A stretch of DNA of 18,011 bases from a virus (lineage: Duplodnaviria; Heunggongvirae; Uroviricota; Caudoviricetes), in the IMG/VR virus record IMGVR_UViG_2645727539_000006. One strand, given 5' to 3'. Below the pieces are notes generated by a model. The model made no database searches. It was not told the DNA's origin and saw only the letters and a program-made list of their open reading frames with translations. Shown in pieces: positions 2,725 through 17,907 of this stretch. The translations under genes and the position numbers were made by a program. Each line of letters begins with the position of its first letter. Position 1 is the stretch's first letter.

Positions 2725-3078
2725 TTATCGTCGCCGGTTAACTGCCGGTGGTTGCCCACGGTTGAGCCAGAGATAACAACTGCCCCCGTCATCCGGAGAA
2801 ACACGATCCACCCAGAATGTCTCACCATTAATGGTCAGCGTGTCACCACGCCGCACAGCACGAACCGTATCCGTCCGCACAAATAATGACGGGCAGCTTC
2901 CTTCAATACGGACCCCGCCACCGGCAAACCCCAGCGACTCCGGATCGTCAAAAACCCCCTGAACTTCGCTGCCACACTGTGCCCCCGAGGTGAACTGCGC
3001 ACAGAGCCCCATCACTTCAACAATCGTACTGTCCACCCCGGCAAGGGCAGCATCAAAGGCATTCTGAAAATCACGCAT
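2725..3078 (-). CDS. FII: head-tail joining protein gpFII
   Basis: 117 aa; the C-terminus FWVDRVSPDDGGSCYLWLNRGQPPAVNRRR matches lambda gpFII as I recall it; same length as lambda FII. Confidence 0.9.
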   Translation of the reverse strand: MRDFQNAFDAALAGVDSTIVEVMGLCAQFTSGAQCGSEVQGVFDDPESLGFAGGGVRIEGSCPSLFVRTDTVRAVRRGDTLTINGETFWVDRVSPDDGGSCYLWLNRGQPPAVNRRR

Positions 3079-3456
3079 ACTCAGCCGTTCCGTGCTGTAT
3101 CATGGCCGTCGCCAGTGATGATGGCACCAGAACACGCATACCCCGGAACGCCAGCTCAACGGGACGACCTGTCTCCGGGCAATACCCCATCACATGCAGG
3201 CACTGCCGCACACGGACCGCTTTAACATCATCCGGAGCATCAGTGTTGTGCAACTGCTCACCATCGTCTGTGTGATTTTGATCAGCCCCGCTCTCATCAC
3301 CAGTGCATAATGCCCTCCCGGGAAACAGCAAGCTCCTCTTCCCACTCAGACACACGTTGCGCAATATCCGCAGCACTCCCCGACATATCCGCCTCGCGCC
3401 CCAGCAGGCCAGCCAGTTGACGAAGACGATTCAGATTTTCTTCTTTTGTTGCCATA
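3071..3456 (-). pseudogene. FI: DNA packaging protein FI, split across two reading frames (frameshift or sequencing indel)
   Basis: An FI-like N-terminus (MATKEENLNRLRQLAGLLG...RVSEWEEEL) runs from the ATG at 3454-3456 to a TGA TGA stop at 3297. An FI-like C-terminus (DESGADQ...RPVELAFRGMRVLVPSSLATAMIQHGTAEYA) is open in a different frame down to 3071. Together about 130 aa, close to lambda FI (132 aa). Confidence 0.6.
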
Positions 3457-3506
3457 TCAGCCCCCTGTGAAAAAAGACACGGGGGCATTTCGCCCCCGCT
3501 CACGGA

Positions 3507-4535
3507 TTATTTCACCTGCACCACCACAAACTCATCCGGATCCGGCAGCACCATCAGCGGTGCGGACTGCGTCATGGTAAATTCACGGGCCGGATCGCCC
3601 ACAGTCAGCCAGTGTTTCGGATAACGGGAAGAAGCCACCACACCTTCGGACAACGCCTGCGCATCCTGAATGGCACCATAACAACGAATCCCATCTGCAG
3701 CCGTATTCCCCAGGACCAGCGTGCCCACCGGCAGATAACGTTTTTCGGTACCGTCCTCTGCCACATAAGACGTTTTCGCCACCACAATGGCCAGATCACC
3801 GTAATACCCTTTGAAAGACACCACCGCCCCCAGGTCTTTCACTGCCGTTTCGAGTTGTGAATTTGAGCCGCGACGGGTATCCAGTTTTTCGCGGAACAGC
3901 TTAAAACCATTCAGCAGACGCCAGACAGTACCGTCCATAATGGCAATATTCACAAGACCGCTGGCCTGATCGCAGTAAAGGTCAATATCATGCGTCGGAT
4001 CAAACGTATCACGGTCCTGCTCAGACCATTTTTTACCGTCGGCCTGCTCAATGTTATTTCCTTCAGAGCGTCCAAAATCCACCTCGACAGTATCAAACTG
4101 CTCCCCTTCCATGGTGTATTTGCCATACAGCACGGCATTCACCGCCTGCATTTCTTCCACCTGGACAATCGCATGCTCTTCCTGTTTGAGGTTATCGGTA
4201 ATGATACGCAGACGACGGTAGGCCGGGTCGTTCAGCTGAGCCGGATCTTCACCAGGAAGACGCTCAACCGCCTGCTGGTAATTAAATTCGTGTTTCGGCT
4301 TGACGTAGCCCGGACGTAACACGCGGGTTTCACCACCGCGATGACGAAGCACTTTTCCTTCAACAACCGGGGAGACATAGGCCGCCACCGGCGTTTTTCC
4401 GGTAATTTTGTCCAGCATCACCTCTTCGGTATGGAAATTCACCGTACGGCGGAAAAACAGCTCCAGAAACAGCGCACGAAATTTAACTTTTTGTTCGGTA
4501 TAACCGAGTAACTGGCGGGTCGTAAACAATCCCAT
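3507..4535 (-). CDS. E: major capsid protein gpE
   Basis: 342 aa, near-collinear with lambda gpE (341 aa): LFLELFFR, PGYVKPKH, EEMQAVNAVLYGKYTMEGE, KLDTRRGSNSQLETAVKDLG, TVGDPAREFTMTQSAPLMVLPDPDEF. Confidence 0.95.
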   Translation of the reverse strand: MGLFTTRQLLGYTEQKVKFRALFLELFFRRTVNFHTEEVMLDKITGKTPVAAYVSPVVEGKVLRHRGGETRVLRPGYVKPKHEFNYQQAVERLPGEDPAQLNDPAYRRLRIITDNLKQEEHAIVQVEEMQAVNAVLYGKYTMEGEQFDTVEVDFGRSEGNNIEQADGKKWSEQDRDTFDPTHDIDLYCDQASGLVNIAIMDGTVWRLLNGFKLFREKLDTRRGSNSQLETAVKDLGAVVSFKGYYGDLAIVVAKTSYVAEDGTEKRYLPVGTLVLGNTAADGIRCYGAIQDAQALSEGVVASSRYPKHWLTVGDPAREFTMTQSAPLMVLPDPDEFVVVQVK

Positions 4536-4592: not shown

Positions 4593-4940
4593 TTACGGCA
4601 GCGCCGCGTGACTCAGGGCACTGCCAGCAAAGGCATTGGCCTTTTTGTGTTCATCCACACTGTCAGGCCAGCGGATTGCCTCCGTCGCAAAGGTCCCCGA
4701 CTTGTAATACGTCAGCACCGTCTCTGTGCCTTCAAGCGGCAGTACCAGTATGCCAACCGCACTACCGGCTTTCTGTCCGTCCCAGACCACCAGTTTCCCG
4801 GTAGCTTCATCCAGCATCAGGGGCGTCAGTGCCGGTGTTGCCGAGGAAATCCCGCTGCTGCCTGTGGCGGTATGAGCCGGATCATTACCGGCAAAAATAC
4901 GTACTTCCGCACGCTGTTCAGTGATGGTTTTCGTCACCAT
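4593..4940 (-). CDS. D: head decoration protein gpD
   Basis: 115 aa; NDPAHTATG, TPLMLDEATGKLVVWDG, VGILV, YYKSGTF and AFAGSA segments match lambda gpD. Confidence 0.9.
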   Translation of the reverse strand: MVTKTITEQRAEVRIFAGNDPAHTATGSSGISSATPALTPLMLDEATGKLVVWDGQKAGSAVGILVLPLEGTETVLTYYKSGTFATEAIRWPDSVDEHKKANAFAGSALSHAALP

Positions 4941-4976
4941 ATTGTAAAAACCTCCTATTGATGGTCAGCACTGACT

Positions 4977-5579
4977 TCATGGCATAGCCATGAGCATTTT
5001 CACGTCCGCATCACCGTCTGCTGACGTCTGTGCCACGCCACCCTGTACCGCTGCCGGTGAATGGTTCGCCATGAAACGTTCAAACAGGGCGGTTGTGGAT
5101 GCAGAGACCGGTTCTGCCTTACCTGATCCCGCAGCCAGCACAGCCCGGGCGCTCTCCACGGTCATTCCCGGGCAGGCAGCCAGCTGTTCAGCCTGCGCCT
5201 CAGCCCCTTTTGCCTCATCCAGTGCCATGATCTGATCACGGAGTGATGGTCCGGCATCCGCCTGCGGTGAAGCAGCCAGGATCGGGCGGGCTTTTTCCAC
5301 CGTCATCTCCGGCATCGCCGCCAGCGTTGCCGCCAGTTGTTCACGACCGTTCGCTTCTTCACACGCCATAATGCGATCGGCTTCACTCTGCGTGGATGCC
5401 ACCGGCTGCTGCGGTGCCGCCGCGGCCAGAATCGCCCGGGCCTGTTCAACGCTCATGCCCTGTTGTCCTGCCAGCATCGTGGCAAGCTGTTCACGTCCTT
5501 TCGCTTCCTGGCATGTCAGGATCCCCATAACTCGCTGGTTCTCCTGTGCGGCGGCTTCCGTTGCAGTTAATTGCGGCAT
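4977..5579 (-). CDS. Nu3: capsid scaffolding protein Nu3, nested in-frame inside C
   Basis: Internal in-frame ATG at 5577-5579 (residue 302 of C, MPQLTATEAAAQENQRVMGIL...) preceded by a strong AGGAGG Shine-Dalgarno 5 nt upstream; lambda Nu3 is likewise translated from an internal start in C. Confidence 0.6.
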   Translation of the reverse strand: MPQLTATEAAAQENQRVMGILTCQEAKGREQLATMLAGQQGMSVEQARAILAAAAPQQPVASTQSEADRIMACEEANGREQLAATLAAMPEMTVEKARPILAASPQADAGPSLRDQIMALDEAKGAEAQAEQLAACPGMTVESARAVLAAGSGKAEPVSASTTALFERFMANHSPAAVQGGVAQTSADGDADVKMLMAMP

Positions 5580-6482
5580 AGTGCCTCCTCTGACATTACT
5601 GTTCAGCGCCGTGGCCATCACACTGATGGCATCCGACGCATTGACTAATTCATCCGCCAGCCCGGCATCAATGCCGGACTGACCTTCAAAAACGGCAGCC
5701 TCTGTTCCCGTGACGGCATCAACAGACAGACCGGTAAACATCGCCACTTTTTCGGCAAACATCCGGCGCGCCGCATCAATCCGCTGCTGCATGTCCTGGC
5801 GAACCTCTGCCGGCAACGCTTCAAACTGATTGCCATCCACCTTGTGCGCCCCTGAGTAAATCAGCGTGATATCCACACCGGCCTGCGCCAGATGACCGGC
5901 ATAGCTGACATGGCTCATCATCACGCCAATGGAGCCGATACGGGATGTCTGGGTAACCAGCCGTCGGGAGCAGGCCGACGCCAGCAGCATGGCTGCAGAA
6001 CAGGCCGTGTCATTGCACAGTGCCCAGACCGGCTTCTGCTGACGGAGGCGGTAAATCATGTCAGCGCAGTCAAACGCGCCGGCGGCCTGCCCGCCCGGAC
6101 TGTCAATGTCCAGCAGTACGCCCCGCACCTGGCTATCCGCCATTGCCTGCTGAAGACAGGCGACAATGCCGTCATAGCCTGTCATTCCGGAAAATGGCCG
6201 CATACCCCCCAGCCGGTGCACCAGCGTGCCGGTCACTGGCAGTACAGCAATACCGTTCACCACCCGGTAAACACGGGCCGGTCGTTTACCTCCGGCCATG
6301 TACTCGTCCGTTTCAGCCAGCATTCCGGGAGCATCAAACTGTACCTGCTGTTGTGGTACCGAAAGACTTGCTGCCCCCATCTCGCGCCCGAGCGCGCAAA
6401 AGAAAACCCGCGCATAGGCGGGCTCCAGAAGCAGCGGTTCATTGAATGCTGCGGCAATAATGTGTGAAAGATTACGTCTCAC
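4977..6482 (-). CDS. C: head maturation protease / scaffold protein gpC (S49 SppA-like) with expanded C-terminal scaffold repeats
   Basis: 501 aa; N-terminal two thirds are collinear with lambda gpC (AFNEPLLLEPAYARVFFCAL, SGMTGYDGIV, KPVWALCNDTACSAA, SRRLVTQTSRIGSIGVMM, ITLIYSGAHKVDGN, IDAGLADELVN). About 60 aa longer than lambda C because the Nu3-like C-terminal unit is present three times. Confidence 0.9.
   Translation of the reverse strand: MRRNLSHIIAAAFNEPLLLEPAYARVFFCALGREMGAASLSVPQQQVQFDAPGMLAETDEYMAGGKRPARVYRVVNGIAVLPVTGTLVHRLGGMRPFSGMTGYDGIVACLQQAMADSQVRGVLLDIDSPGGQAAGAFDCADMIYRLRQQKPVWALCNDTACSAAMLLASACSRRLVTQTSRIGSIGVMMSHVSYAGHLAQAGVDITLIYSGAHKVDGNQFEALPAEVRQDMQQRIDAARRMFAEKVAMFTGLSVDAVTGTEAAVFEGQSGIDAGLADELVNASDAISVMATALNSNVRGGTMPQLTATEAAAQENQRVMGILTCQEAKGREQLATMLAGQQGMSVEQARAILAAAAPQQPVASTQSEADRIMACEEANGREQLAATLAAMPEMTVEKARPILAASPQADAGPSLRDQIMALDEAKGAEAQAEQLAACPGMTVESARAVLAAGSGKAEPVSASTTALFERFMANHSPAAVQGGVAQTSADGDADVKMLMAMP
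5105..5570 (-). repeat. three tandem, diverged ~150-bp coding repeats inside C/Nu3
   Basis: Repeat anchors CAGCTGTTCA (5181-5190), CAGTTGTTCA (5334-5343) and AAGCTGTTCA (5484-5493) recur at ~150-bp spacing. They encode three ~50-aa units (RVMGILTCQEAKGREQLATMLAGQQGMSVEQARAILAAA; RIMACEEANGREQLAATLAAMPEMTVEKARPILAAS; QIMALDEAKGAEAQAEQLAACPGMTVESARAVLAAG). Boundaries approximate. Confidence 0.7.
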
Positions 6483-8064
6483 GTGGTGTTGTCTCCTCTT
6501 CCGGCCTACGACTCTCCGCTATCTGCTGCTGATACGCCTGCGCTATCCACACCGGACGTGAGAGTCCGGCTTTTTGCCGCTCAGCAGATTCCCTGACCTG
6601 CTGGCGGAAAATGTCCTGATAATCCTCGCCCATCAGCGCCAGCTCTTTCTCATACGTGCTCAGTCCGGCCTCAATGCGCATCACTGATTCCTGGACTTCC
6701 TTGAGCCCGTCAATGGCCATTCTTCCGGCACCAATCCACTCTGCCCGTGACCAGGCTGATCGCGCCTGATAAAAATCAAAACGTGCCCGTGGCGGACGAA
6801 TAATCCCCCGAAGAAGTGCCTCTTCCAGCCAGCAGGAAAACATCTGCGTGGCCAGCCGGGCCGCAATAAATTTTCGCCGCCCCATAAAATAGCGCCACGA
6901 CTCATTGGCGGAGGCGCGGGCACTTGAATAACTGACCTTCGAGTAATCACGGGACAACTGTTCGTAGGAAACGCCAAGACCGGCGGCGATATACCGCAGC
7001 AGCGCCTGTTCAAGCGCCGAAAATCCATTGTCTGAATCCTGCGCAGTCTGCAGTTTCAGATCATCCCCGGGGAAAAGGTGCGGAATTCTGACACCGCCCA
7101 GCGTCACGTTATTCGTGTCATACCAGCTGGAGAACTTCTCCAGAATATTAATAAGCGGATTATCCTTCTGCCCCTGCGGCGCACCGGCGATATATTCAAA
7201 GGCCTTTTCGGTATCAAGTTCACTTTCAATTGTCGCTGCATACATGGCTTTCACAATGGCCGACTGAAGCTGTGTTGCCTGCAGGGAATCGAGCATCTTC
7301 AGCCGTTCCATGACGCTGTAAAACTGATTAGCCCCACGGGTCTGCCCGTCCTCCACCGGCTCGAAAATATGCAGCATGGCCGGACGCCCGGTGGGAAGTT
7401 CACGCGGGATCCGTTCCCATCGACCACTACCAGAGAACGGAAAATCATCCTCACAGATATGGTACGCAACGGCACGGCCATATCGATCGACCTCCACACC
7501 GGCCCGTAGAAAGCGGTTCCCCATACCGTGTCCAGGCGTGTCCACCCGTTTCGGACTCACGGCTTTAAAACGCGTACGGAATAACTGCGTGGTTTCCGTA
7601 TCCCAGACCGGCTGCACAAAGATTTCGCCGTTAAAGACATGAACGCCCACACCTTCACGGATAAATTCCGTAAACGTGCGTTTCCCTTCCACGTCGATCT
7701 CGCCAGACATCCCTTCTGCGTATTCCGACCAGGCCGCCTCCACCTCATCGACAAAACTTTTTGCCGCGGTCTCCCGCATCCCCAGCCAGCGCCAGTTCGG
7801 ACGGTAGCTGATCAGAAACATATGCCCGACAATGTGATCCTTATGCAGAGCCACCGCATTGGCCGCTATTCCGTTATTGCGCACCAGATCATCTGCCCGG
7901 GCATTCCCCAGACGCAACGCGGGCAGCAGGGCCGCATCGGCACTCTGCGCCGGTGGCAACCACTCAGCCATTTGCCCGCCAAATCCTGCACCGCCCCCGT
8001 TGTAGCTGAGACTCTCACGAAGCGGAACGCCGTTCACATCAATCAGGACAGGCGTTCGTTTCAT
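6472..8064 (-). CDS. B: portal protein gpB
   Basis: 530 aa (lambda 533); GNARADDLVRNNGIA, FEPVEDGQTRGANQFYSVME, QSAIVKAMYAATIESELDT, LLRYIAAGLGVSYEQLSR, SANESW, GSGRMAIDGLKEVQE match lambda gpB. ATGA overlap with the W stop. Confidence 0.95.
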   Translation of the reverse strand: MKRTPVLIDVNGVPLRESLSYNGGGAGFGGQMAEWLPPAQSADAALLPALRLGNARADDLVRNNGIAANAVALHKDHIVGHMFLISYRPNWRWLGMRETAAKSFVDEVEAAWSEYAEGMSGEIDVEGKRTFTEFIREGVGVHVFNGEIFVQPVWDTETTQLFRTRFKAVSPKRVDTPGHGMGNRFLRAGVEVDRYGRAVAYHICEDDFPFSGSGRWERIPRELPTGRPAMLHIFEPVEDGQTRGANQFYSVMERLKMLDSLQATQLQSAIVKAMYAATIESELDTEKAFEYIAGAPQGQKDNPLINILEKFSSWYDTNNVTLGGVRIPHLFPGDDLKLQTAQDSDNGFSALEQALLRYIAAGLGVSYEQLSRDYSKVSYSSARASANESWRYFMGRRKFIAARLATQMFSCWLEEALLRGIIRPPRARFDFYQARSAWSRAEWIGAGRMAIDGLKEVQESVMRIEAGLSTYEKELALMGEDYQDIFRQQVRESAERQKAGLSRPVWIAQAYQQQIAESRRPEEETTPRET

Positions 8065-8267
8065 AACCTCACTCCCAGCGGACGACGGCGACGCCGGGTT
8101 GTCCCCAGTACCGACTCCGCATCATTGATCGCCCGGTTAAGCTCATCCAGAGAAGCCGCCGTATATTCAATTCTGCGACCATCTTTCTGGACAGACACCA
8201 CCCGTTTACCGGTTAATAAATCAAGGCGCGCCTGACGCAGCGCCTGCAGTTCAGCGACTGTAACCAT
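8061..8267 (-). CDS. W: head-tail joining protein gpW
   Basis: 68 aa (lambda W is 68 aa); LTGKRVVSVQKDGRRIEYTA matches lambda [20 protein letters not shown]. Confidence 0.85.
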   Translation of the reverse strand: MVTVAELQALRQARLDLLTGKRVVSVQKDGRRIEYTAASLDELNRAINDAESVLGTTRRRRRPLGVRL

Positions 8268-10179
8268 TCACTCCTCCGGACAGCTTCGCTGCCAGTTCTT
8301 TAAGGGTTGGCCGGGTCGTCTCTTCTTCCCGGGATTTTGCCAGTACAGCCAGATCAAGCTGCCAGCGTTGCACGGACACACGTAATGCCGCGTAGGCATA
8401 CACCAGGCAGTCCAGCGCTTCGTTACGCCGCTTTTTGTTATCCCACAGCAGACGCATCTTTCCTTTTTCCCACTTCTCCACAAGCTCTTCCGCGACCAGT
8501 TGCTGCGCCTCTGTCTGCGAAAAAATCTCCGGATCATCAGGAAAACGGATGGCATACGACGTGGCTTCATCCACAGGCGTGGGATCGGCTTTCATACGGG
8601 CATAGAGAATTTCTTTTGCGGTGTCCGTTCCCACTTCACACAGATACACGCCCCGCTGATTGCGGGTTTTTGGCATGGTGATCACCGGCTTGCCATAGAC
8701 AGATGCGCCTTTTACCGGCAGCACCCGGAAAACACCGTGTTTTTTTGACCTCTGATAAACGATTTCGCCATCGATCCCCCCGGTGTCCCAGCAGACACGG
8801 GAAATAGTCATTTCGGTTCCGTCTGCATGGCGGTATTTTTTGTTGATCGCCGCATCCACACGTAACAGCGTCTCTTCCTCATCGGGACGCCCCATAATGA
8901 TGATTTTATCCACCAGAAAGGCTTCCTCTCCCGGAGCCCATCCCCAGACATACATCTCAAAACGGTTTCGCTGCGAGTCAATGCCCGCCGTCAGATAAAC
9001 CACCCGGGCAGGCACCGCCGCCGTGTAACGCACAACCTTATCCATCAGCACCTGGTGATCGAGTTTTTCGCCCACGGCCTCTTCCCAGGTCTCGCCCAGC
9101 GTGGTGTTCACAAAGGTTTTCAGGCCGTTGGGATCTTTCAGGGCATCCAGCCAGTCATAGACAATCTGTACCCAGGTGGTGAACGGACTGTACGCCGTCC
9201 AGATATGGAAAGTGATGGAGCGCGGCGGCGGAATTTCATCACCCCGGGCGCTGAAAAACATCAGGCCGTCACGGGTCAACATGCCCGTGTTTTCACAGAT
9301 CCACCGCCCGTTACTCTGGTCAAGCTCAGACTGATGGATCACACAGCCATGATGCTCACAAAGGTAGAAAACACTTTCTGGCTTATTCTTCTCCCACTTA
9401 AGACCGAAAGGCGAGGCATCATCACCAAATTTCAGATACTGCTCCTCCCCACAGTGCGGACAGGGCACATAAAAACGCATGAAATGTGCCGACTCGTTAG
9501 CGGCTTTTTCGATCTGGCAGGAGCCTTTGATTTTAGGCGTCGAGCCGCGAATGGATTTTGGCCATACAGAGCCCTCAATACGTTTATCCCCCAGCAGGGT
9601 TGGCGACCCCTCTTTTTCAACATCCGGCTCGAACGAGGAAAGTTCGTCATAGCAGACCACGTCCACGGATTTTTCACGGTAGTTTTTGGCGGCAGCGCCG
9701 CCCAGGCACCAGAAACCGACGCCCGATGAAAAGCGTTTCAGCGTGAGAGTATTGTCACGATGTTTACGACCCAGCCATGGGGAAAGGTCTTTCAGGCATG
9801 GCACGTTCCGAATCGTCGCCTCCACGTGAGACTTCATAAAATCTTCAGCGGCAGAATCCGTGGGCTGAAAAAGCAGACTGTTTCGGGATTTATGCTCAAT
9901 AAAATACCCGACCACCCCCAGCAACATCTTTGTATAGCCAACACGGGCAGATTTAATCAGATTAACAGTGCGGATCTGATCATTCCCCATGCTGTTCATG
10001 ATGGCGATCTGGAATGGCAGCGTTTTCCATTCGCCCTCACCATATGAAGATTCTTTAGGCAGATAATAATTTTGATCAGCCCATTCAACTGGCGTCACCG
10101 GCAATGCCCTTATCAGGGGCTGTAATGCAGTTGTGACAGCGCTCATCATATTATTCAGTTGTTGCTCTGATATATTCAT
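8251..10179 (-). CDS. A: terminase large subunit gpA
   Basis: 642 aa from the ATG at 10177-10179 (MNISEQQLNNMM..., lambda starts MNISNSQ). Collinear with lambda gpA throughout (VEWADQNYYLPKES, KSARVGYTKMLLGV, GSVWPKSIRGSTPK, CPHCGEEQYLKFGD, FHIWTAYSPFTTWVQIV, KGASVYGKPV, DNKKRRNEALDC). The ORF track's longer start (10236) includes upstream read-through. Confidence 0.95.
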   Translation of the reverse strand: MNISEQQLNNMMSAVTTALQPLIRALPVTPVEWADQNYYLPKESSYGEGEWKTLPFQIAIMNSMGNDQIRTVNLIKSARVGYTKMLLGVVGYFIEHKSRNSLLFQPTDSAAEDFMKSHVEATIRNVPCLKDLSPWLGRKHRDNTLTLKRFSSGVGFWCLGGAAAKNYREKSVDVVCYDELSSFEPDVEKEGSPTLLGDKRIEGSVWPKSIRGSTPKIKGSCQIEKAANESAHFMRFYVPCPHCGEEQYLKFGDDASPFGLKWEKNKPESVFYLCEHHGCVIHQSELDQSNGRWICENTGMLTRDGLMFFSARGDEIPPPRSITFHIWTAYSPFTTWVQIVYDWLDALKDPNGLKTFVNTTLGETWEEAVGEKLDHQVLMDKVVRYTAAVPARVVYLTAGIDSQRNRFEMYVWGWAPGEEAFLVDKIIIMGRPDEEETLLRVDAAINKKYRHADGTEMTISRVCWDTGGIDGEIVYQRSKKHGVFRVLPVKGASVYGKPVITMPKTRNQRGVYLCEVGTDTAKEILYARMKADPTPVDEATSYAIRFPDDPEIFSQTEAQQLVAEELVEKWEKGKMRLLWDNKKRRNEALDCLVYAYAALRVSVQRWQLDLAVLAKSREEETTRPTLKELAAKLSGGVNGYSR

Positions 10180-10660
10180 CAAGTAAATCCGGTAATTTAT
10201 CCCCTGCCCGCGCACACTGATTTGCCCCCTTAGCAATAAGGGTTTTCAGATGGTCAAGATGGCGCGGTGTTAAATCAGGAAACTGTCGCTGCATGGATAA
10301 AGGGATGGAATCAAGCGTACTGGATAACGCCATTGCCAGCTTGCTGAGGGCAAAAATACAGAACCCGGTGTCAATCAGTTTTCCTTTTGACACCTCATTT
10401 TTTAACTGCTGTGTAACAGCCTGTTCTGCTGTCAGTTCCCATCTGGCAATAAGCAATTTCTCTTCATAGTCTTCTTCGCTATCGCCATCAGGCACATCGT
10501 TTTTACTTCTTCTCAGATACGATATGTAAAAATCGCGCCAGGCATCCAGATCCAGTTGCCCTCGCTTATTCGAGACCGGGGCACCCGGTAATTTCTGCAA
10601 TCTGCGAAGCTGGCGATCGGTCAGACTCAAATGCCTGGCAACTTCAGTCTGCGTAGCCAC
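10151..10660 (-). CDS. Nu1: terminase small subunit (Nu1 homolog) with a divergent N-terminal DNA-binding domain
   Basis: The C-terminal half (FCIFALSKLAMALSSTLDSIPLSMQRQFPDLTPRHLDHL...LPDLLDEYI) matches the lambda Nu1 terminase-interaction region. The N-terminus (ATQTEVARHLSLTDRQLRRLQKL) is an HTH-like segment unlike lambda Nu1. The first in-frame codon is GTG (10658-10660), preceded by AGGTGAGGA. The 3' end overlaps the A start by ~29 nt as in lambda. Confidence 0.85.
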   Translation of the reverse strand: MATQTEVARHLSLTDRQLRRLQKLPGAPVSNKRGQLDLDAWRDFYISYLRRSKNDVPDGDSEEDYEEKLLIARWELTAEQAVTQQLKNEVSKGKLIDTGFCIFALSKLAMALSSTLDSIPLSMQRQFPDLTPRHLDHLKTLIAKGANQCARAGDKLPDLLDEYIRATTE

Positions 10661-11436: not shown

Positions 11437-11985
11437 TCAGGCTTGAATACCTTTATCGAATCCCGGTAATAAAAACTGTCCCTGTCTCTCCAGACGTTCC
11501 AGCTTTGCAAGCAATTGAGGTTTTTTCGTTCTCCCCCAGCGATTGAGCAGACGGCCTGACATGCTGGCGACATCCTTCTCTTTCATGTACTCCAGCATTA
11601 CGGCGTTACGTTCTGCTTCATAACTTTCGCTGTACTTACGGAGTTCTGCTGACATCCAGTTAAACGCATTGATATAGGCTTCTTTAACAGCATCGGCTTT
11701 TGCCCCGTTAAATCCCATAACCAGCATAACGAAGCCACTAAAGTCCATGCGGTAGTAAATCTGTTTCTTGTCAAAAATACCTAAGTCATTGATTTTCTTG
11801 ACGGCCCAAAAATGGGTTGTCGAGAATTCCTCAGAACATCTCAAACATTTAATAGCCCTAATCACATGCTGATGGCGTTTACCAAATGCCCTGGCAATCT
11901 GGAAGGTGTCAGTTACCGGTTGACCTTCTGCTGCGGTAACTAACTGGCGAAAGTCGAAGTCATGATTCGCAATTAATTCATTCAT
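11437..11985 (-). CDS. rha: Rha-family phage regulatory protein (possibly starting at the upstream ATG at 12054)
   Basis: From the ATG at 11983-11985: MNELIANHDFDFRQLVTAAEGQPVTDTFQIARAFGKRHQHVIRAIKCL, resembling the Rha N-terminal motif (PVTxSxxIAxxFGKRHxxVLRxI). Location downstream of Rz and before cos. Confidence 0.55.
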   Translation of the reverse strand: MNELIANHDFDFRQLVTAAEGQPVTDTFQIARAFGKRHQHVIRAIKCLRCSEEFSTTHFWAVKKINDLGIFDKKQIYYRMDFSGFVMLVMGFNGAKADAVKEAYINAFNWMSAELRKYSESYEAERNAVMLEYMKEKDVASMSGRLLNRWGRTKKPQLLAKLERLERQGQFLLPGFDKGIQA

Positions 11986-12137
11986 GGCGTTGCCTGCTTC
12001 TTTGAAATGAACCTTTGCCGCATAGGAAACCAGCCCACCGAGGCTCGCCAGCACTAACTGGTATCCTCAAAGGCCCATTCCAAAGGGTCAGGTTCGGTGT
12101 TTATTGTGCGCTGCGGTGCGCGGTGAAATACCGGTAC

Positions 12138-13788: not shown

Positions 13789-15639
13789 TTATGCTGCCGG
13801 TGCATTTATCTCCAGCATCAGACTTTCTATCTCAACGCCATACGCTGCATTTTTTGTAACATCCGTCAGCGTCAGCGCATTCAGTCCCAGTGTCAGACTG
13901 TCTTTTATAACCTGGAATGCCGGGCCAGCCACTCCATTCAGTTTCGGAGTAACCGTGGCACTGCCGGCGGTGAACACCAGCTCCAGCGTCTGCCAGTCGT
14001 TACCGTAATCGCCGAACTCCCCCAGCTTCGTGTTTCCGGCTTTCCTGTGATGCATCAGATTCACTCTGCCGTCAGTGGTCTGAGTGAAGTACGACATCAG
14101 GAACGGATTACCGGTACCCGTCATCGCCACACCATCAGGAACGGGAGCATCCGTATACAGATAAATCCCCAGCCCGAACTGATTGTTGGTCAGTGCGCCT
14201 GACAGGCGGAACTTACAGGTCAGTCTGCCGCCCTGTGTCAGCAGGGTAATTGCGTCATCCACCGGATGCGTCAGGGACCAGGTTTTATTGCTCTGCTTGG
14301 TGATCTTAAATACACCATCTGACAACTGAATTCCGCCATCCTTAATGCTCCAGCCCTGCGCAGCAGCCTCTCCGGCTGCCGGCAGCAGGGAGATTGTGCG
14401 AACGGACGTATCTGCAGACGGACCCGATGGCGTGTTGCCGCCGGGCGAGGGTTTGATTTCCGGTGCCTTACCACTGATGAAGGCTGAGGTGCGCCCGGCT
14501 GCGTTCAGAATAGCGGTTGCCAGACGATCCGGAATAATGCTCCTGCGCGCCCATGAACTGAAATGTGTCGGGCGGTTTGATGATACCTGGTTTCCATTCG
14601 TTCTCGATGCCGCACCGTAATATCCTGATGCCGGAATATCCGGATCTTCTGCCGGCGCGTTAGTGGCGGTATTGACGCCGTTACCATCTGTCATGAAGGG
14701 CACAAAATAAACGCCCTCACTCTCCCTGTTTTTATACCCGCCGTACACGGTGTCGTACTGGGTAGCGTATGTATTTTTCCAGTAATACGTCGTGTCACCA
14801 CAAACCCACGGCACATCTGCAGCACTGCCACCATGGCACTGCGCGTTAAACACGGAGAGGTCAGCACGAAACTGTGTCAGCATGGCTGTAAACAGCGCAG
14901 GTTGCTGTGCGTGGGTGGCGGCGCTCATGTCAAACTCACCCTGCATCCAGCAGACGGCCAGCAGAACGTTTTTGGGATTTTTCTGCAATGCCGCTTTTGT
15001 GCGGGAAATCAGATCCTGATATAACGGCTTGCCCACCCCCCAGCGTGCCGAATCCTGACTGGCCCCCGTGGACTCGCTGAATGTCCCCTCCGCGCCCTGG
15101 GTAAATGCCGAACCACCACGACAGCATGGTACCAGCAGGATCCCCGCGTTATTCGGGATATACGGGAGCAGTTTTTTGGCAATATGTAAACCCTGACCGA
15201 CACAGCCGTACTGCCCTTTGCTCAGGTCAGCCCTCGGATGATTCAGCGTACTCATATCCTGCACATCATGCAGACAGTGGTCAGCCGGAATAATATCGTT
15301 ATATCTGCAGGCAGCCCCGCCCGGCGTCACTGTACTGCGGCGCGCCAGCTGTTTAATGCGCGGATCCGGAGCATCGTATGAATCCGGCAGCGGAAGCCCT
15401 TCACCGTAAGCCATGGCATTGGACTGCCCGGCCAGTACGATGACGTAGTACCAATCCGGCTCAGATGAAGGGCCGACCTGTGGCTCTCCTTCAATAGCCA
15501 CCGCCTGCATCAGTGTGTACGGCGTAATGGCAACCGGTCCGCCGTATGGCTGCCAGCCCTCTTTCAGTTTGTGTGTCAGCTTTTCCGCAAGGTCTGACGG
15601 CGACGCCGCCCTGACAACATCGTAATGTTTAATCGACAT
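13789..15639 (-). CDS. nanS-p: prophage sialate O-acetylesterase NanS-p-like protein (DUF1737 N-domain + SGNH/SASA esterase + C-terminal domain)
   Basis: 616 aa; N-terminal MSIKHYDVVRAASPSDLAEKLTHKLKEGWQPYGGPVA is DUF1737-like; YYVIVLAGQSNAMAYGE carries the GQSN catalytic-serine motif of sialate O-acetylesterases; sits just upstream of the holin as in Stx and other lambdoid prophages. GGGAG Shine-Dalgarno before the ATG at 15637-15639. Confidence 0.75.
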   Translation of the reverse strand: MSIKHYDVVRAASPSDLAEKLTHKLKEGWQPYGGPVAITPYTLMQAVAIEGEPQVGPSSEPDWYYVIVLAGQSNAMAYGEGLPLPDSYDAPDPRIKQLARRSTVTPGGAACRYNDIIPADHCLHDVQDMSTLNHPRADLSKGQYGCVGQGLHIAKKLLPYIPNNAGILLVPCCRGGSAFTQGAEGTFSESTGASQDSARWGVGKPLYQDLISRTKAALQKNPKNVLLAVCWMQGEFDMSAATHAQQPALFTAMLTQFRADLSVFNAQCHGGSAADVPWVCGDTTYYWKNTYATQYDTVYGGYKNRESEGVYFVPFMTDGNGVNTATNAPAEDPDIPASGYYGAASRTNGNQVSSNRPTHFSSWARRSIIPDRLATAILNAAGRTSAFISGKAPEIKPSPGGNTPSGPSADTSVRTISLLPAAGEAAAQGWSIKDGGIQLSDGVFKITKQSNKTWSLTHPVDDAITLLTQGGRLTCKFRLSGALTNNQFGLGIYLYTDAPVPDGVAMTGTGNPFLMSYFTQTTDGRVNLMHHRKAGNTKLGEFGDYGNDWQTLELVFTAGSATVTPKLNGVAGPAFQVIKDSLTLGLNALTLTDVTKNAAYGVEIESLMLEINAPAA

Positions 15640-16181: not shown

Positions 16182-16922
16182 TTAAATTCTGGTCCTTACA
16201 ATATCAACCTGAAGATTCTTATCTTGTGCTGATTGATAAATGACAAACCTTTTACTACCTGCATTGAAAGAAGTAGACAAAACCAGACAATTATCATAAC
16301 GAGCAAGAACATAATACCAACCATCATTATAATTAATCATTTCATATTCTTTCTTAAACTGTGGTTTGTAATATCCTGTCAGAAATGAAAAAAGCCAAAA
16401 ATATGCCACAAAAGCAATCATCACAATCTCAAAAAAATGTTTTTTTATAAATGGCTTATCATAGAAGCATGATACCGATAAAAATCGCCCATAAGATCTT
16501 ATCGAAATTGTAACCGCCAGCGCAATCGCTGCTGACAGTAGCAAAAGAGGTACCTGAATCTTCTGTCTCAATATAGAAAACTCAATAATTGCCGGCACAA
16601 ACAATAATTCCACAGCAAAATAAAGGCGAAATACATTTAGCTCTTGCATAGAATGTTTTCTTTTCACTGCGAAAAAGAATACAACACCAATACCCCAACC
16701 GATAAGAAATATAGCAATGACGATAACTGCAAAAAATAAACTTCTGGCAACATCATCAACACCTGCACCTACAATCCACCATGGGAAGCCGTAGTAAAAA
16801 GAAGTACCCCATCCATAGAAATAAGCACTCCCCCATCCATAGAAATAAGCACTCCCCCATCCAAGGCATCCCATGTAGGCAATAAAAAGTGAAGAACTCC
16901 TGAGCAGCGCACCATCCTTCAT
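16182..16922 (-). CDS. unrecognised polytopic membrane protein with N-terminal Gly/aromatic tandem repeats (phage cargo gene)
   Basis: Long ORF (ORF track 16182..16964) in visibly AT-rich DNA; likely start is the ATG at 16920-16922 (MKDGALL...) preceded by GGGGTGG. Has GWGSAYFY-GWGSAYFY-GWGTSFYY repeats, at least four hydrophobic helices (e.g. LFFAVIVIAIFLIGWGIGVVFFFAV; VPLLLLSAAIALAVTISI) and a ~55-aa soluble C-terminus. No family recognised from memory. Confidence 0.55.
   Translation of the reverse strand: MKDGALLRSSSLFIAYMGCLGWGSAYFYGWGSAYFYGWGTSFYYGFPWWIVGAGVDDVARSLFFAVIVIAIFLIGWGIGVVFFFAVKRKHSMQELNVFRLYFAVELLFVPAIIEFSILRQKIQVPLLLLSAAIALAVTISIRSYGRFLSVSCFYDKPFIKKHFFEIVMIAFVAYFWLFSFLTGYYKPQFKKEYEMINYNDGWYYVLARYDNCLVLSTSFNAGSKRFVIYQSAQDKNLQVDIVRTRI
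16807..16863 (-). repeat. perfect 24-bp tandem duplication (plus part of a third copy) inside the membrane-protein gene
   Basis: Plus strand CCCCATCCATAGAAATAAGCACTC at 16807-16830 and again at 16831-16854, followed by CCCCATCCA; encodes the GWGSAYFY repeats. Confidence 0.9.
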
Positions 16923-16960
16923 AACCACCCCAATACAAGATGATAACATTGGCTTACAAC

Positions 16961-16989
16961 TCATAACAAAAGCAATTCAATGCCGTCAA
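16961..16989 (-). promoter_or_regulatory. candidate sigma70 promoter for the cargo gene (weak -10)
   Basis: Minus strand TTGACG (plus 16984-16989), 17-nt spacer, TTATGA (plus 16961-16966). The -35 is good, the -10 is poor. Confidence 0.25.
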
Positions 16990-17121: not shown

Positions 17122-17150
17122 AGTATATGGCTTTTAATCCAGTTTTGCAA
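17122..17150 (-). promoter_or_regulatory. candidate late promoter pR' overlapping the 3' end of the Q-like gene
   Basis: Minus strand TTGCAA (17145-17150), 17-nt spacer, TATACT (17122-17127); a -10-like TGGTATGTT lies in the early transcribed region (possible sigma-dependent pause); the predicted ~50-nt transcript ends at the terminator at 17062-17085. Confidence 0.35.
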
Positions 17151-17907
17151 TATTTTGCTGTAAAAATGCTGCCTTTTGTTTTGAACGTGTTCTCGTCACA
17201 AGCAATAAAGCATCACTATCAAGCTGTAGAAAAATGTGCTTCATTGCAACCCAGCGTTCAGTAAATGTCTCGGACCAGTTTTTTGTTGTCACTCCCACCA
17301 ATGATGCCAGTGTCTGGTATTCATAGGCCTCACGCCCTGCAAGTTCGCTCTTCACATCCTGTGCAGCCAGCCAGATTAACGTCTTCAGGCGATCCAGTGT
17401 CTTACCTGCAATTTTTCTGTTACTTAACAAATCTTTAAACTCGCTCCATGCCCATTGCGTTATGGTGACCTGATGCCCCCATCGAACGCTTTCGCTGTAA
17501 CACCAAAGCAACCATGCTTTCTGATGTTCATCGAGAGACAAAACCGCGCGGCGCCATGAAGAGGTTGAGAATTCAACCGGGCTGACCAAAGCAATGGATG
17601 AACCTTTTGCGTACGACTGCTTACCGGAAGTCGGCGTATTATCCAGCGTAATCATCTTGCCAGTTACCACATCCAGAATGCGCGGCTTCTTTCGTTTGTA
17701 TGTACCAGTATCAAATTGTGCATGCTCCTGCCAGGCTTCGAGCTGGCCTTTCGTTGCTCCGTTCAAGTCAGCAGTAGCTGCCATAAGTTGCTCACGAACA
17801 TACTGTAAATATTGGGTATTCATGCAGTAAATCCTTTCTATATTTTGGCATAATTCTTCAACATTCGGTAATCGTTCAAAACCGAATCGGGGAAACGACA
17901 TAAGCAC
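17134..17907 (-). CDS. putative late-gene antiterminator Q-like protein (assigned by position and size; family not confirmed)
   Basis: 229-257 aa ORF depending on start (GTG at 17905-17907, or the ATG at 17821-17823 with an AAAGGA Shine-Dalgarno, MNTQYLQYVREQL...). It is the last gene before the promoter/terminator module and the lysis region. No zinc-finger Cys pairs as in lambda Q, so it would be a different Q family (lengths near 250 aa occur in some prophage Q homologs, from memory). Confidence 0.4.
   Translation of the reverse strand: MLMSFPRFGFERLPNVEELCQNIERIYCMNTQYLQYVREQLMAATADLNGATKGQLEAWQEHAQFDTGTYKRKKPRILDVVTGKMITLDNTPTSGKQSYAKGSSIALVSPVEFSTSSWRRAVLSLDEHQKAWLLWCYSESVRWGHQVTITQWAWSEFKDLLSNRKIAGKTLDRLKTLIWLAAQDVKSELAGREAYEYQTLASLVGVTTKNWSETFTERWVAMKHIFLQLDSDALLLVTRTRSKQKAAFLQQNIAKLD

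Follow-up and report, generated by a model that had tools for sequence, protein, structure and literature searches.

In bacteriophage lambda, the head maturation protease gpC and the scaffold gpNu3 share their C-terminus, which lets scaffold and protease co-assemble into the procapsid, where the protease later removes the scaffold (PMC3224144). In phage 21, the head gene operon of which is recorded as GenBank M81255 ('Bacteriophage 21 head gene operon'; OL657228 is also phage 21), the scaffold is encoded by gene 6, which starts at Met302 of gp5 and has its own ribosome-binding site, and the record places inside gene 6 three features of the type repeat_region, named 'Tri1 box', 'Tri box' and 'Tri3 box' and described as 'function unknown; putative'. 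We analyzed an 18,011-nucleotide (nt) stretch of Caudoviricetes DNA (IMG/VR record IMGVR_UViG_2645727539_000006; hereafter the window), which is the late region of a mosaic lambdoid Escherichia coli prophage with its genes on the minus strand. The subject of this work is its open reading frame (ORF) 4977..6482, which encodes a protease of 501 amino acids (aa) with a scaffold domain at its C-terminal end, and for which the lambda Nu3 core unit had originally been predicted to occur three times in tandem. The prediction holds, and the record M81255, found by a tblastn search of phage records, shows that it had been anticipated: the triple repeat is already known, being the Tri boxes of phage 21 met with again in a prophage that carries a copy of gene 5. 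As a discovery it carries little weight, since the boxes are on record and the gene is common in E. coli, at least 80% of it being present in 1866 of 5426 complete genomes (about a third), frequently in multiple copies each.

Comparison with described systems

The ORF has an N-terminal, SppA-like domain of the Pfam family Peptidase_S49 (PF01343; E = 7.3e-35; 120.6 bits, the cut-off being 24.9) and matches, from end to end, the head maturation protease family PHROG 53 (E = 1e-228). Aligned with lambda C, its product is 58% identical, and numerous Ser, Lys and His columns of the alignment are invariant. The two systems have in common the fusion of an S49 protease to a scaffold domain, the core motif ENSRIMGILNCEEAHGREEQARVLAETPGMTVKTARRILAAAPQ and the position, which follows the portal gene and precedes those of the decoration and major capsid proteins and is the canonical place of this gene in a lambda-type head module. 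The in-frame internal start and the scaffold sharing the C-terminus of the protease have a putative counterpart in the window. They differ in the number of units (one in lambda, three here) and in a linker insertion of 36 aa that lambda has and the window lacks, and lambda Nu3 starts 63 codons further upstream, within the protease domain. The protein had been expected to exceed lambda C by about 60 aa, and the difference is 62 aa (501 versus 439 aa). The identification of the repeat with the Nu3 core motif was equally borne out, as the single lambda unit aligns with unit 1 of the array and both have an insertion of the residues VMG.

The resemblance to phage 21 is far closer. Gene 5 of that phage and the window gene are each 1506 nt long and differ by 12 mismatches and no indel (99.2% DNA identity), which leaves six amino-acid differences between the window and phage 21 (F249Y, D272E, V280I, A373V, L466M and R469H). 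The three units and their positions, the nested scaffold gene, its ribosome-binding site and the gene neighborhood are the same, so that only point differences distinguish the two, and each of the Tri boxes, once transferred to the window, falls on the core of one unit (Table 1). A literature search found neither the original phage 21 head-gene paper nor any discussion of the Tri boxes.

A more distant relative is the prohead protease STM2605 of the Salmonella prophage Gifsy-1, which has the three units in the same order with their unit-specific signatures, as well as the internal Shine-Dalgarno sequence and ATG. It differs in sequence, with approximately 54% identity in the scaffold part, and has a GRE motif in all three units, whereas unit 3 of phage 21 and of the window reads GAE.

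Evidence for the three units

The presence of three units of 48-53 aa, placed head to tail in the C-terminal part of the protein, is confirmed by two comparisons. Smith-Waterman alignments between pairs of units scored 101, 87 and 97, against approximately 26 ± 5 in composition-preserving shuffles (z = 15.8, 11.8 and 14.4), and none of the 2000 shuffles made for each pair reached the observed score. A hidden Markov model (HMM) built only from the units of unrelated, mostly single-unit proteins, and thus independent of the array, recognized each of the three (Table 1), while the highest score among 200 shuffled C-termini was 3.8 bits. The consensus of the unit is E-x-D-R-I-M-A-C-x-E-A-K-G-R-E-Q-L-A-x-x-L-A-A-x-P-G-M-T-V-E-x-A-R-A-I-L-A-A, with 16 columns invariant across units 1-3, and its charged loop, for which the family consensus is EAKGRE, reads EAKGRE in unit 1, EANGRE in unit 2 and EAKGAE in unit 3. 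The span first proposed for the repeat, 5105-5580, covers the units nearly exactly, and the nested scaffold gene begins at position 5579. A match of unit 3 to the HHH domain of Pfam, at 13 bits against a cut-off of 24, is below threshold and was not accepted.

The repetition is much less evident in the DNA, where the units are just 50-61% identical to one another. A periodicity of about 150 bp had been predicted, and it is present but weak: the autocorrelation of the DNA has a peak at a lag of 150, where 46% of the letters match (mean 27.5%; z = 5.1), and another at 141 (z = 3.3), and a family of 12-nt words recurs once per unit with spacings of 153 and 150. Tandem Repeats Finder, run on positions 4900-6600, reported no repeat, because the units are too diverged in their DNA.

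The nested scaffold gene and its predicted structure

The internal start of phage 21 gene 6, with its ribosome-binding site, is present in the same sequence in the window, where it would give a scaffold of 200 aa that is the functional analogue of lambda Nu3 (Table 1). The segment AGGAGGCACTATG is identical in phage 21, Escherichia albertii, E. coli and Salmonella Gifsy-1 despite differing flanking codons, a Providencia homologue has GAGG-N6-ATG at the equivalent site, and an internal Met preceded by a Shine-Dalgarno sequence is kept across homologues down to approximately 54% identity. As judged from sequence comparison, the conservation of AGGAGGCACTATG is the pattern that would be expected of a conserved initiation site. 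There is no lambda-type Nu3 start in the window, because the position of lambda Met239, at which Nu3 begins, is occupied by Ile236. Despite these different internal starts, the two scaffolds are of nearly the same size (201 aa for lambda Nu3 and 200 aa for phage 21 gp6), although they are made up differently: lambda Nu3 is built from the last part of the protease domain, the lambda-specific linker, one unit and a tail, whereas the 21-type scaffold consists of three units and a tail of 38 aa, with almost nothing else. This equality of size may reflect a constraint on the length of the scaffold.

We used AlphaFold2 to model the 200-aa scaffold with an alignment of 20 sequences, and a single unit (the unit 1 sequence) with an alignment of 60 sequences. 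The model of the whole scaffold predicts three separate helical modules, with a predicted local distance difference test score (pLDDT) of 74-82 in the units, joined by linkers of low confidence and followed by a low-confidence tail with helices at scaffold residues 160-173 and 190-196. Its predicted template modeling score (pTM) is 0.28, so that no confident packing between the modules is predicted. The single unit was modeled better (pLDDT 87, pTM 0.65), as helices at residues 2-9, 18-25 and 32-41 with the conserved charged loop (EAKGRE) between the first two. In the BFVD library of viral models the top structural matches were other S49 prohead proteases (probability 1.0, TM-score 0.79-0.85). 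A sequence search of the PDB found no relative, and a Foldseek comparison of the whole 200-aa model with the PDB was uninformative, as expected of a flexible model with several modules.

Distribution, age and selection of the module

When the three-unit profile was searched against 1.84 billion representative proteins, 484 of them contained the unit at E ≤ 1e-3, and among the 150 best-scoring of these 484 the unit was single in 131. A single unit typically lies approximately 40 residues from the C-terminus of S49 proteins of 400-550 aa, or else in stand-alone proteins of 100-200 aa, which identifies it as the conserved core of the S49 protease-scaffold (Nu3-type) family. When a single genome was scanned for each species, with a bias from the pair of peptide patterns employed, 21 loci emerged, with three units in E. 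albertii, E. coli, Shigella and Providencia and one unit in the remaining 17, including those of Vibrio, several alphaproteobacteria, Desulfarculus, Bryobacter and Leptospira. Together with Gifsy-1 of Salmonella, these four are the only places where three units were observed (Escherichia, Shigella, Salmonella and Providencia). One unit is thus the ancestral state, and the triplication is derived and belongs to one clade of Enterobacterales phages. Outside that clade, the stand-alone scaffolds P0126, P0212 and P0216 (194-223 aa) have two units in a different register, with long spacers and without the VMG deletion pattern, which suggests independent duplications of the module.

The copies had been described as diverged and their expansion as old and presumably functional, and both points find support. 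In 171 of 216 comparisons between homologous proteins, down to approximately 54% identity, the best-matching unit was the one at the same position, against about a third expected by chance. The units also keep marks of their own: besides the VMG insertion that unit 1 shares with lambda, unit 2 keeps AAMP(E/D)MT, which reads AAMPEMT in phage 21 and Gifsy-1 alike. Against the homologues of E. albertii, E. coli and Gifsy-1, the ratio of nonsynonymous to synonymous substitution rates (dN/dS) was 0.08-0.29 for each unit, 0.12-0.23 for the protease domain and 0.3-0.9 for the C-terminal tail, which is more relaxed. By these ratios each unit is under purifying selection that acts on the protein, and it is at the level of selection that the presumed functionality of the array is supported.

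Variation in the number of units

The full-length proteins among close relatives from E. coli (>80% identity) fall into classes by length, set apart from one another by whole units or parts of units. Two units are found in the class of 451-452 aa, with in-register junctions at QEA-N-GREQLA or ILAAAAPQ-ADAG; unit 2 is partly deleted in the classes of 472 and 482 aa, leaving approximately 2.6 units; the class of 501 aa has three; and that of 551 aa has four, with the junction PGMT-EMTVE. Examples of such variants are the loci L025, L026 and L027 and the proteins P0321, P0338, P0274, P0346, P0237 and P0030, the last being a partial protein with four units that are much more alike (60-77% identity). 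The junctions lie at short motifs common to the units (GREQLA, P(G/E)MTVE and ILAA..PQ), and the 12-nt word GCCAGCTGTTCA, of which each unit has one copy, is a plausible place for crossing-over.

Three of the variants were confirmed in the DNA, and there the neighboring head-module genes are all of full length; moreover, an index of assemblies has the 482-aa protein, without any change of sequence, in 3592 blocks. Three units are nevertheless the predominant state. In complete E. coli genomes, the stretch that the 482-aa form lacks was found at 2851 of approximately 3254 places (1812 genomes), and in the collection examined all 19 true phage records carrying the gene have three complete units; the single exception, CP025907, appears, to judge by its accession, name and length, to be prophage sequence taken from a bacterial genome. 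The array is thus recombinationally dynamic, and three units are the sole state seen in demonstrably viable phages. A separate case is P0236, a 657-aa protein of an E. coli chromosome with five recognizable units, in which a segment of 156 aa that begins where the protease domain ends and reaches as far as unit 3 is duplicated internally and out of register; it could be a real rearrangement or an artefact of assembly.

Proposed role of the array and alternative explanations

Taken together, these results make it very probable that ORF 4977..6482 is a phage 21-type gp5/gp6 arrangement, in which a 501-aa S49 protease and a nested 200-aa scaffold of three modules and a tail go back to an ancestral triplication. 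We propose that the ORF yields two proteins, the full-length protease and, from position 5579, a scaffold identical to the C-terminus of the protease. A module of approximately 48 aa, predicted to be a small three-helix bundle, was triplicated in the ancestry of one group of lambdoid phages of Enterobacterales, and each copy may serve as a contact element in procapsid assembly, in scaffold self-association and/or in binding of the capsid protein or the portal. The shared C-terminus would bring the protease into the procapsid, while three modules on flexible linkers would make a multivalent scaffold of the size of lambda Nu3, in which they replace the lambda-specific N-terminal part.

Analogies from other viruses are consistent with such a role. 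Small helical scaffold elements bind the N-arm of the capsid protein in P22 (PMC12005531) and phi29 (PMC11922011), and the coat-binding helix-turn-helix domains of P22 gp8, phi29 gp7 and the 80alpha and SPP1 scaffolds, which are elements of a transient scaffold, contact the inner capsid surface, largely by charged residues (PMC12005531, PMC11922011). The likeness is one of function alone: these scaffolds have one C-terminal element, with neither a tandem repeat nor fusion to an S49 protease, and a comparison of sequences and structures in the PDB detected no sequence relationship and no specific fold relationship between the units and the P22-type coat-binding domain. In herpesviruses, the protease UL26 and the abundant scaffold UL26.5 have the same C-terminal part, which binds the major capsid protein and thereby brings about co-packaging of the protease (PMC12005531), although the protease belongs to an unrelated family, there is no array of repeats and the virus is eukaryotic.

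Some observations weigh against this proposal. M81255 qualifies the ribosome-binding site before the internal start as 'putative'. Lambda gpNu3 is reported as intrinsically disordered (Medina et al. 2011, J Mol Biol 412:723, as cited in PMC11922011), and for that reason the modules may fold only on binding, the predicted bundles not being stably folded in isolation. Finally, in-frame variants with two, approximately 2.6 and four units occur in otherwise intact-looking prophage head modules, which makes a strict need for exactly three units doubtful.

The last point leads to the strongest competing explanation, namely that the extra units are a tolerated spacer produced by unequal recombination and that their number matters only for the rough length of the protein. 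The series of length classes with in-register junctions at GREQLA and P(G/E)MTVE, the full-length neighbors of the variants and the many assemblies with the 482-aa form all agree with it, and since the total length of the scaffold equals that of lambda Nu3, length is possibly what counts. However, a mere spacer does not account well for purifying selection on each unit comparable to that on the protease domain, for position-specific features such as AAMPEMT in unit 2 that are kept over the divergence down to 54% identity, for the three complete units of every true phage record, or for the presence, at most places in E. coli, of the stretch lost in the 482-aa form. We consider this explanation possible but rather unlikely.

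Still more tentative is an extension of the contact-module proposal, by which the array would be a naturally tunable scaffold: unequal crossing-over would generate viable forms with two, three or four modules, and their number would set the valency or reach of the scaffold. We doubt that this is so, and the effect on scaffold valency or procapsid assembly that had first been suggested for the expansion is conjectural. Module number would then affect the efficiency of assembly, the fidelity of head size or the fit with the capsid alleles of mosaic lambdoid phages, and the match in size between Nu3 and gp6 would be a real constraint on dimensions met by two architectures. As most relatives have the module once and one clade has it three times, the natural alleles with two, 2.6 and four units, together with tractable lambda/21 hybrids, make its function testable, and such work could reveal how the structurally poorly understood Nu3-type scaffolds contact the capsid protein and the portal.

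It is very improbable that the Tri boxes work through the DNA or RNA itself, whether as binding sites for proteins, as regulatory RNA structures or as signals for recombination, instead of as protein modules. M81255 does label them as repeat_regions of the DNA, and the near-identical 12-nt word occurs once per unit. Yet the low DNA identity between the units stands against strong protein profile matches, Tandem Repeats Finder was silent, no Rfam match was found anywhere in the window, and, read in the minus-strand frame, most differences between homologues are synonymous substitutions. The plus-strand ORFs 4990-5235, 5337-5570 and 5371-5682 and an RNA family were considered as alternative features and rejected, as the former had no Pfam match and the latter no Rfam match. 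Chance similarity of an Ala/Gln/Glu-rich low-complexity sequence, which the Ala-rich composition of the region and a BLASTP comparison of the 501-aa protein with itself that gave the identity alignment only could be thought to favor, deserves practically no credence, being refuted by shuffles that never came near the observed scores (z of 12-16 for the pairs, HMM scores of 49-77 bits for the units), by the invariant columns and by the recognition of the unit in hundreds of unrelated proteins.

Gene neighborhood and other features of the window

Table 1. Coordinates of the protease-scaffold gene, its parts, the transferred phage 21 boxes and selected neighboring genes in the window
Feature	Position	Strand	Remarks
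ORF, head maturation protease + C-terminal scaffold domain	4977..6482	(-)	GTG start, 501 aa + stop; lambda C homologue
S49 serine peptidase domain, aa 146-293	5604..6047	(-)	PF01343; coordinates computed from ORF start
In-frame scaffold gene (phage 21 gene 6, lambda Nu3 functional analogue)	4977..5579	(-)	ATG 5579-5577; 200 aa + stop
Shine-Dalgarno GAGGAGG	5584..5590	(-)	4-nt spacer before internal ATG; read from sequence
Repeat unit 1, aa 314-366	5385..5543	(-)	77.3 bits, independent HMM; orthologous to the single lambda Nu3 core unit
Repeat unit 2, aa 367-414	5241..5384	(-)	65.3 bits, independent HMM
Repeat unit 3, aa 415-463	5094..5240	(-)	49.3 bits, independent HMM
C-terminal tail of protease + scaffold, aa 464-501, TALFERFMANHSPAAV...DVKMLMAMP	4980..5093	(-)	aligns with lambda tail TALDRLMQG...LLNTPV
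Tri1 box (M81255 5542-5645)	5409-5512	(-)	core of unit 1
Tri box (M81255 5682-5792)	5262-5372	(-)	core of unit 2
Tri3 box (M81255 5823-5936)	5118-5231	(-)	core of unit 3
Major capsid protein	3507-4535	(-)
Decoration protein	4593-4940	(-)
Portal	6472-8064	(-)
Holin, endolysin, Rz	13341-12204	(-)
Q-like antiterminator	17134-17907	(-)

The window reads, in order of transcription, from the Q-like antiterminator through two uncharacterized proteins, the holin, endolysin and Rz genes, a Rha-like regulator and the small and large terminase to a W-like adaptor, the portal, ORF 4977-6482, the decoration and major capsid proteins, an FI-like gene and FII, Z, U, V, G and T. Of the phage records, the best one accounts for only approximately 62% of the window and phage 21 itself for approximately 54%, at about 90.6% identity; the other regions of this mosaic prophage differ from phage 21.

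Some of these genes call for comment on their own account. The large terminase ORF (8251-10236, minus strand) is listed with a TTG start that gives 661 aa, against 642 aa for phage 21 gp2 and related loci, and its true start is probably a downstream ATG that overlaps the end of the small terminase gene. The FI-like DNA-packaging gene (3071-3503, minus strand) has its N-terminal part of approximately 52 aa in one frame and its C-terminal part in another, listed as the ORFs 3297-3503 and 3071-3376; its closest E. coli relatives (96.5% identity) measure 450 nt against 451 nt for the query and are annotated as intact gpFI, and the window copy probably has an insertion of 1 nt, which would make it either a frameshifted FI pseudogene or the product of a sequencing error. 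Between the Rz spanin and small terminase genes lies the Rha-like regulator or anti-repressor gene (11437-12054, minus strand; PHROG 518, E = 4e-87), a mosaic insertion, since related loci carry a small TonB_C-like ORF in that interval instead. Lastly, two large conserved phage ORFs of unassigned function, at 13789-15639 (616 aa, PHROG 143) and 16182-16964 (260 aa, PHROG 1521), both on the minus strand, separate the Q antiterminator from the genes for lysis, the position at which Stx-type lambdoid phages carry cargo genes.

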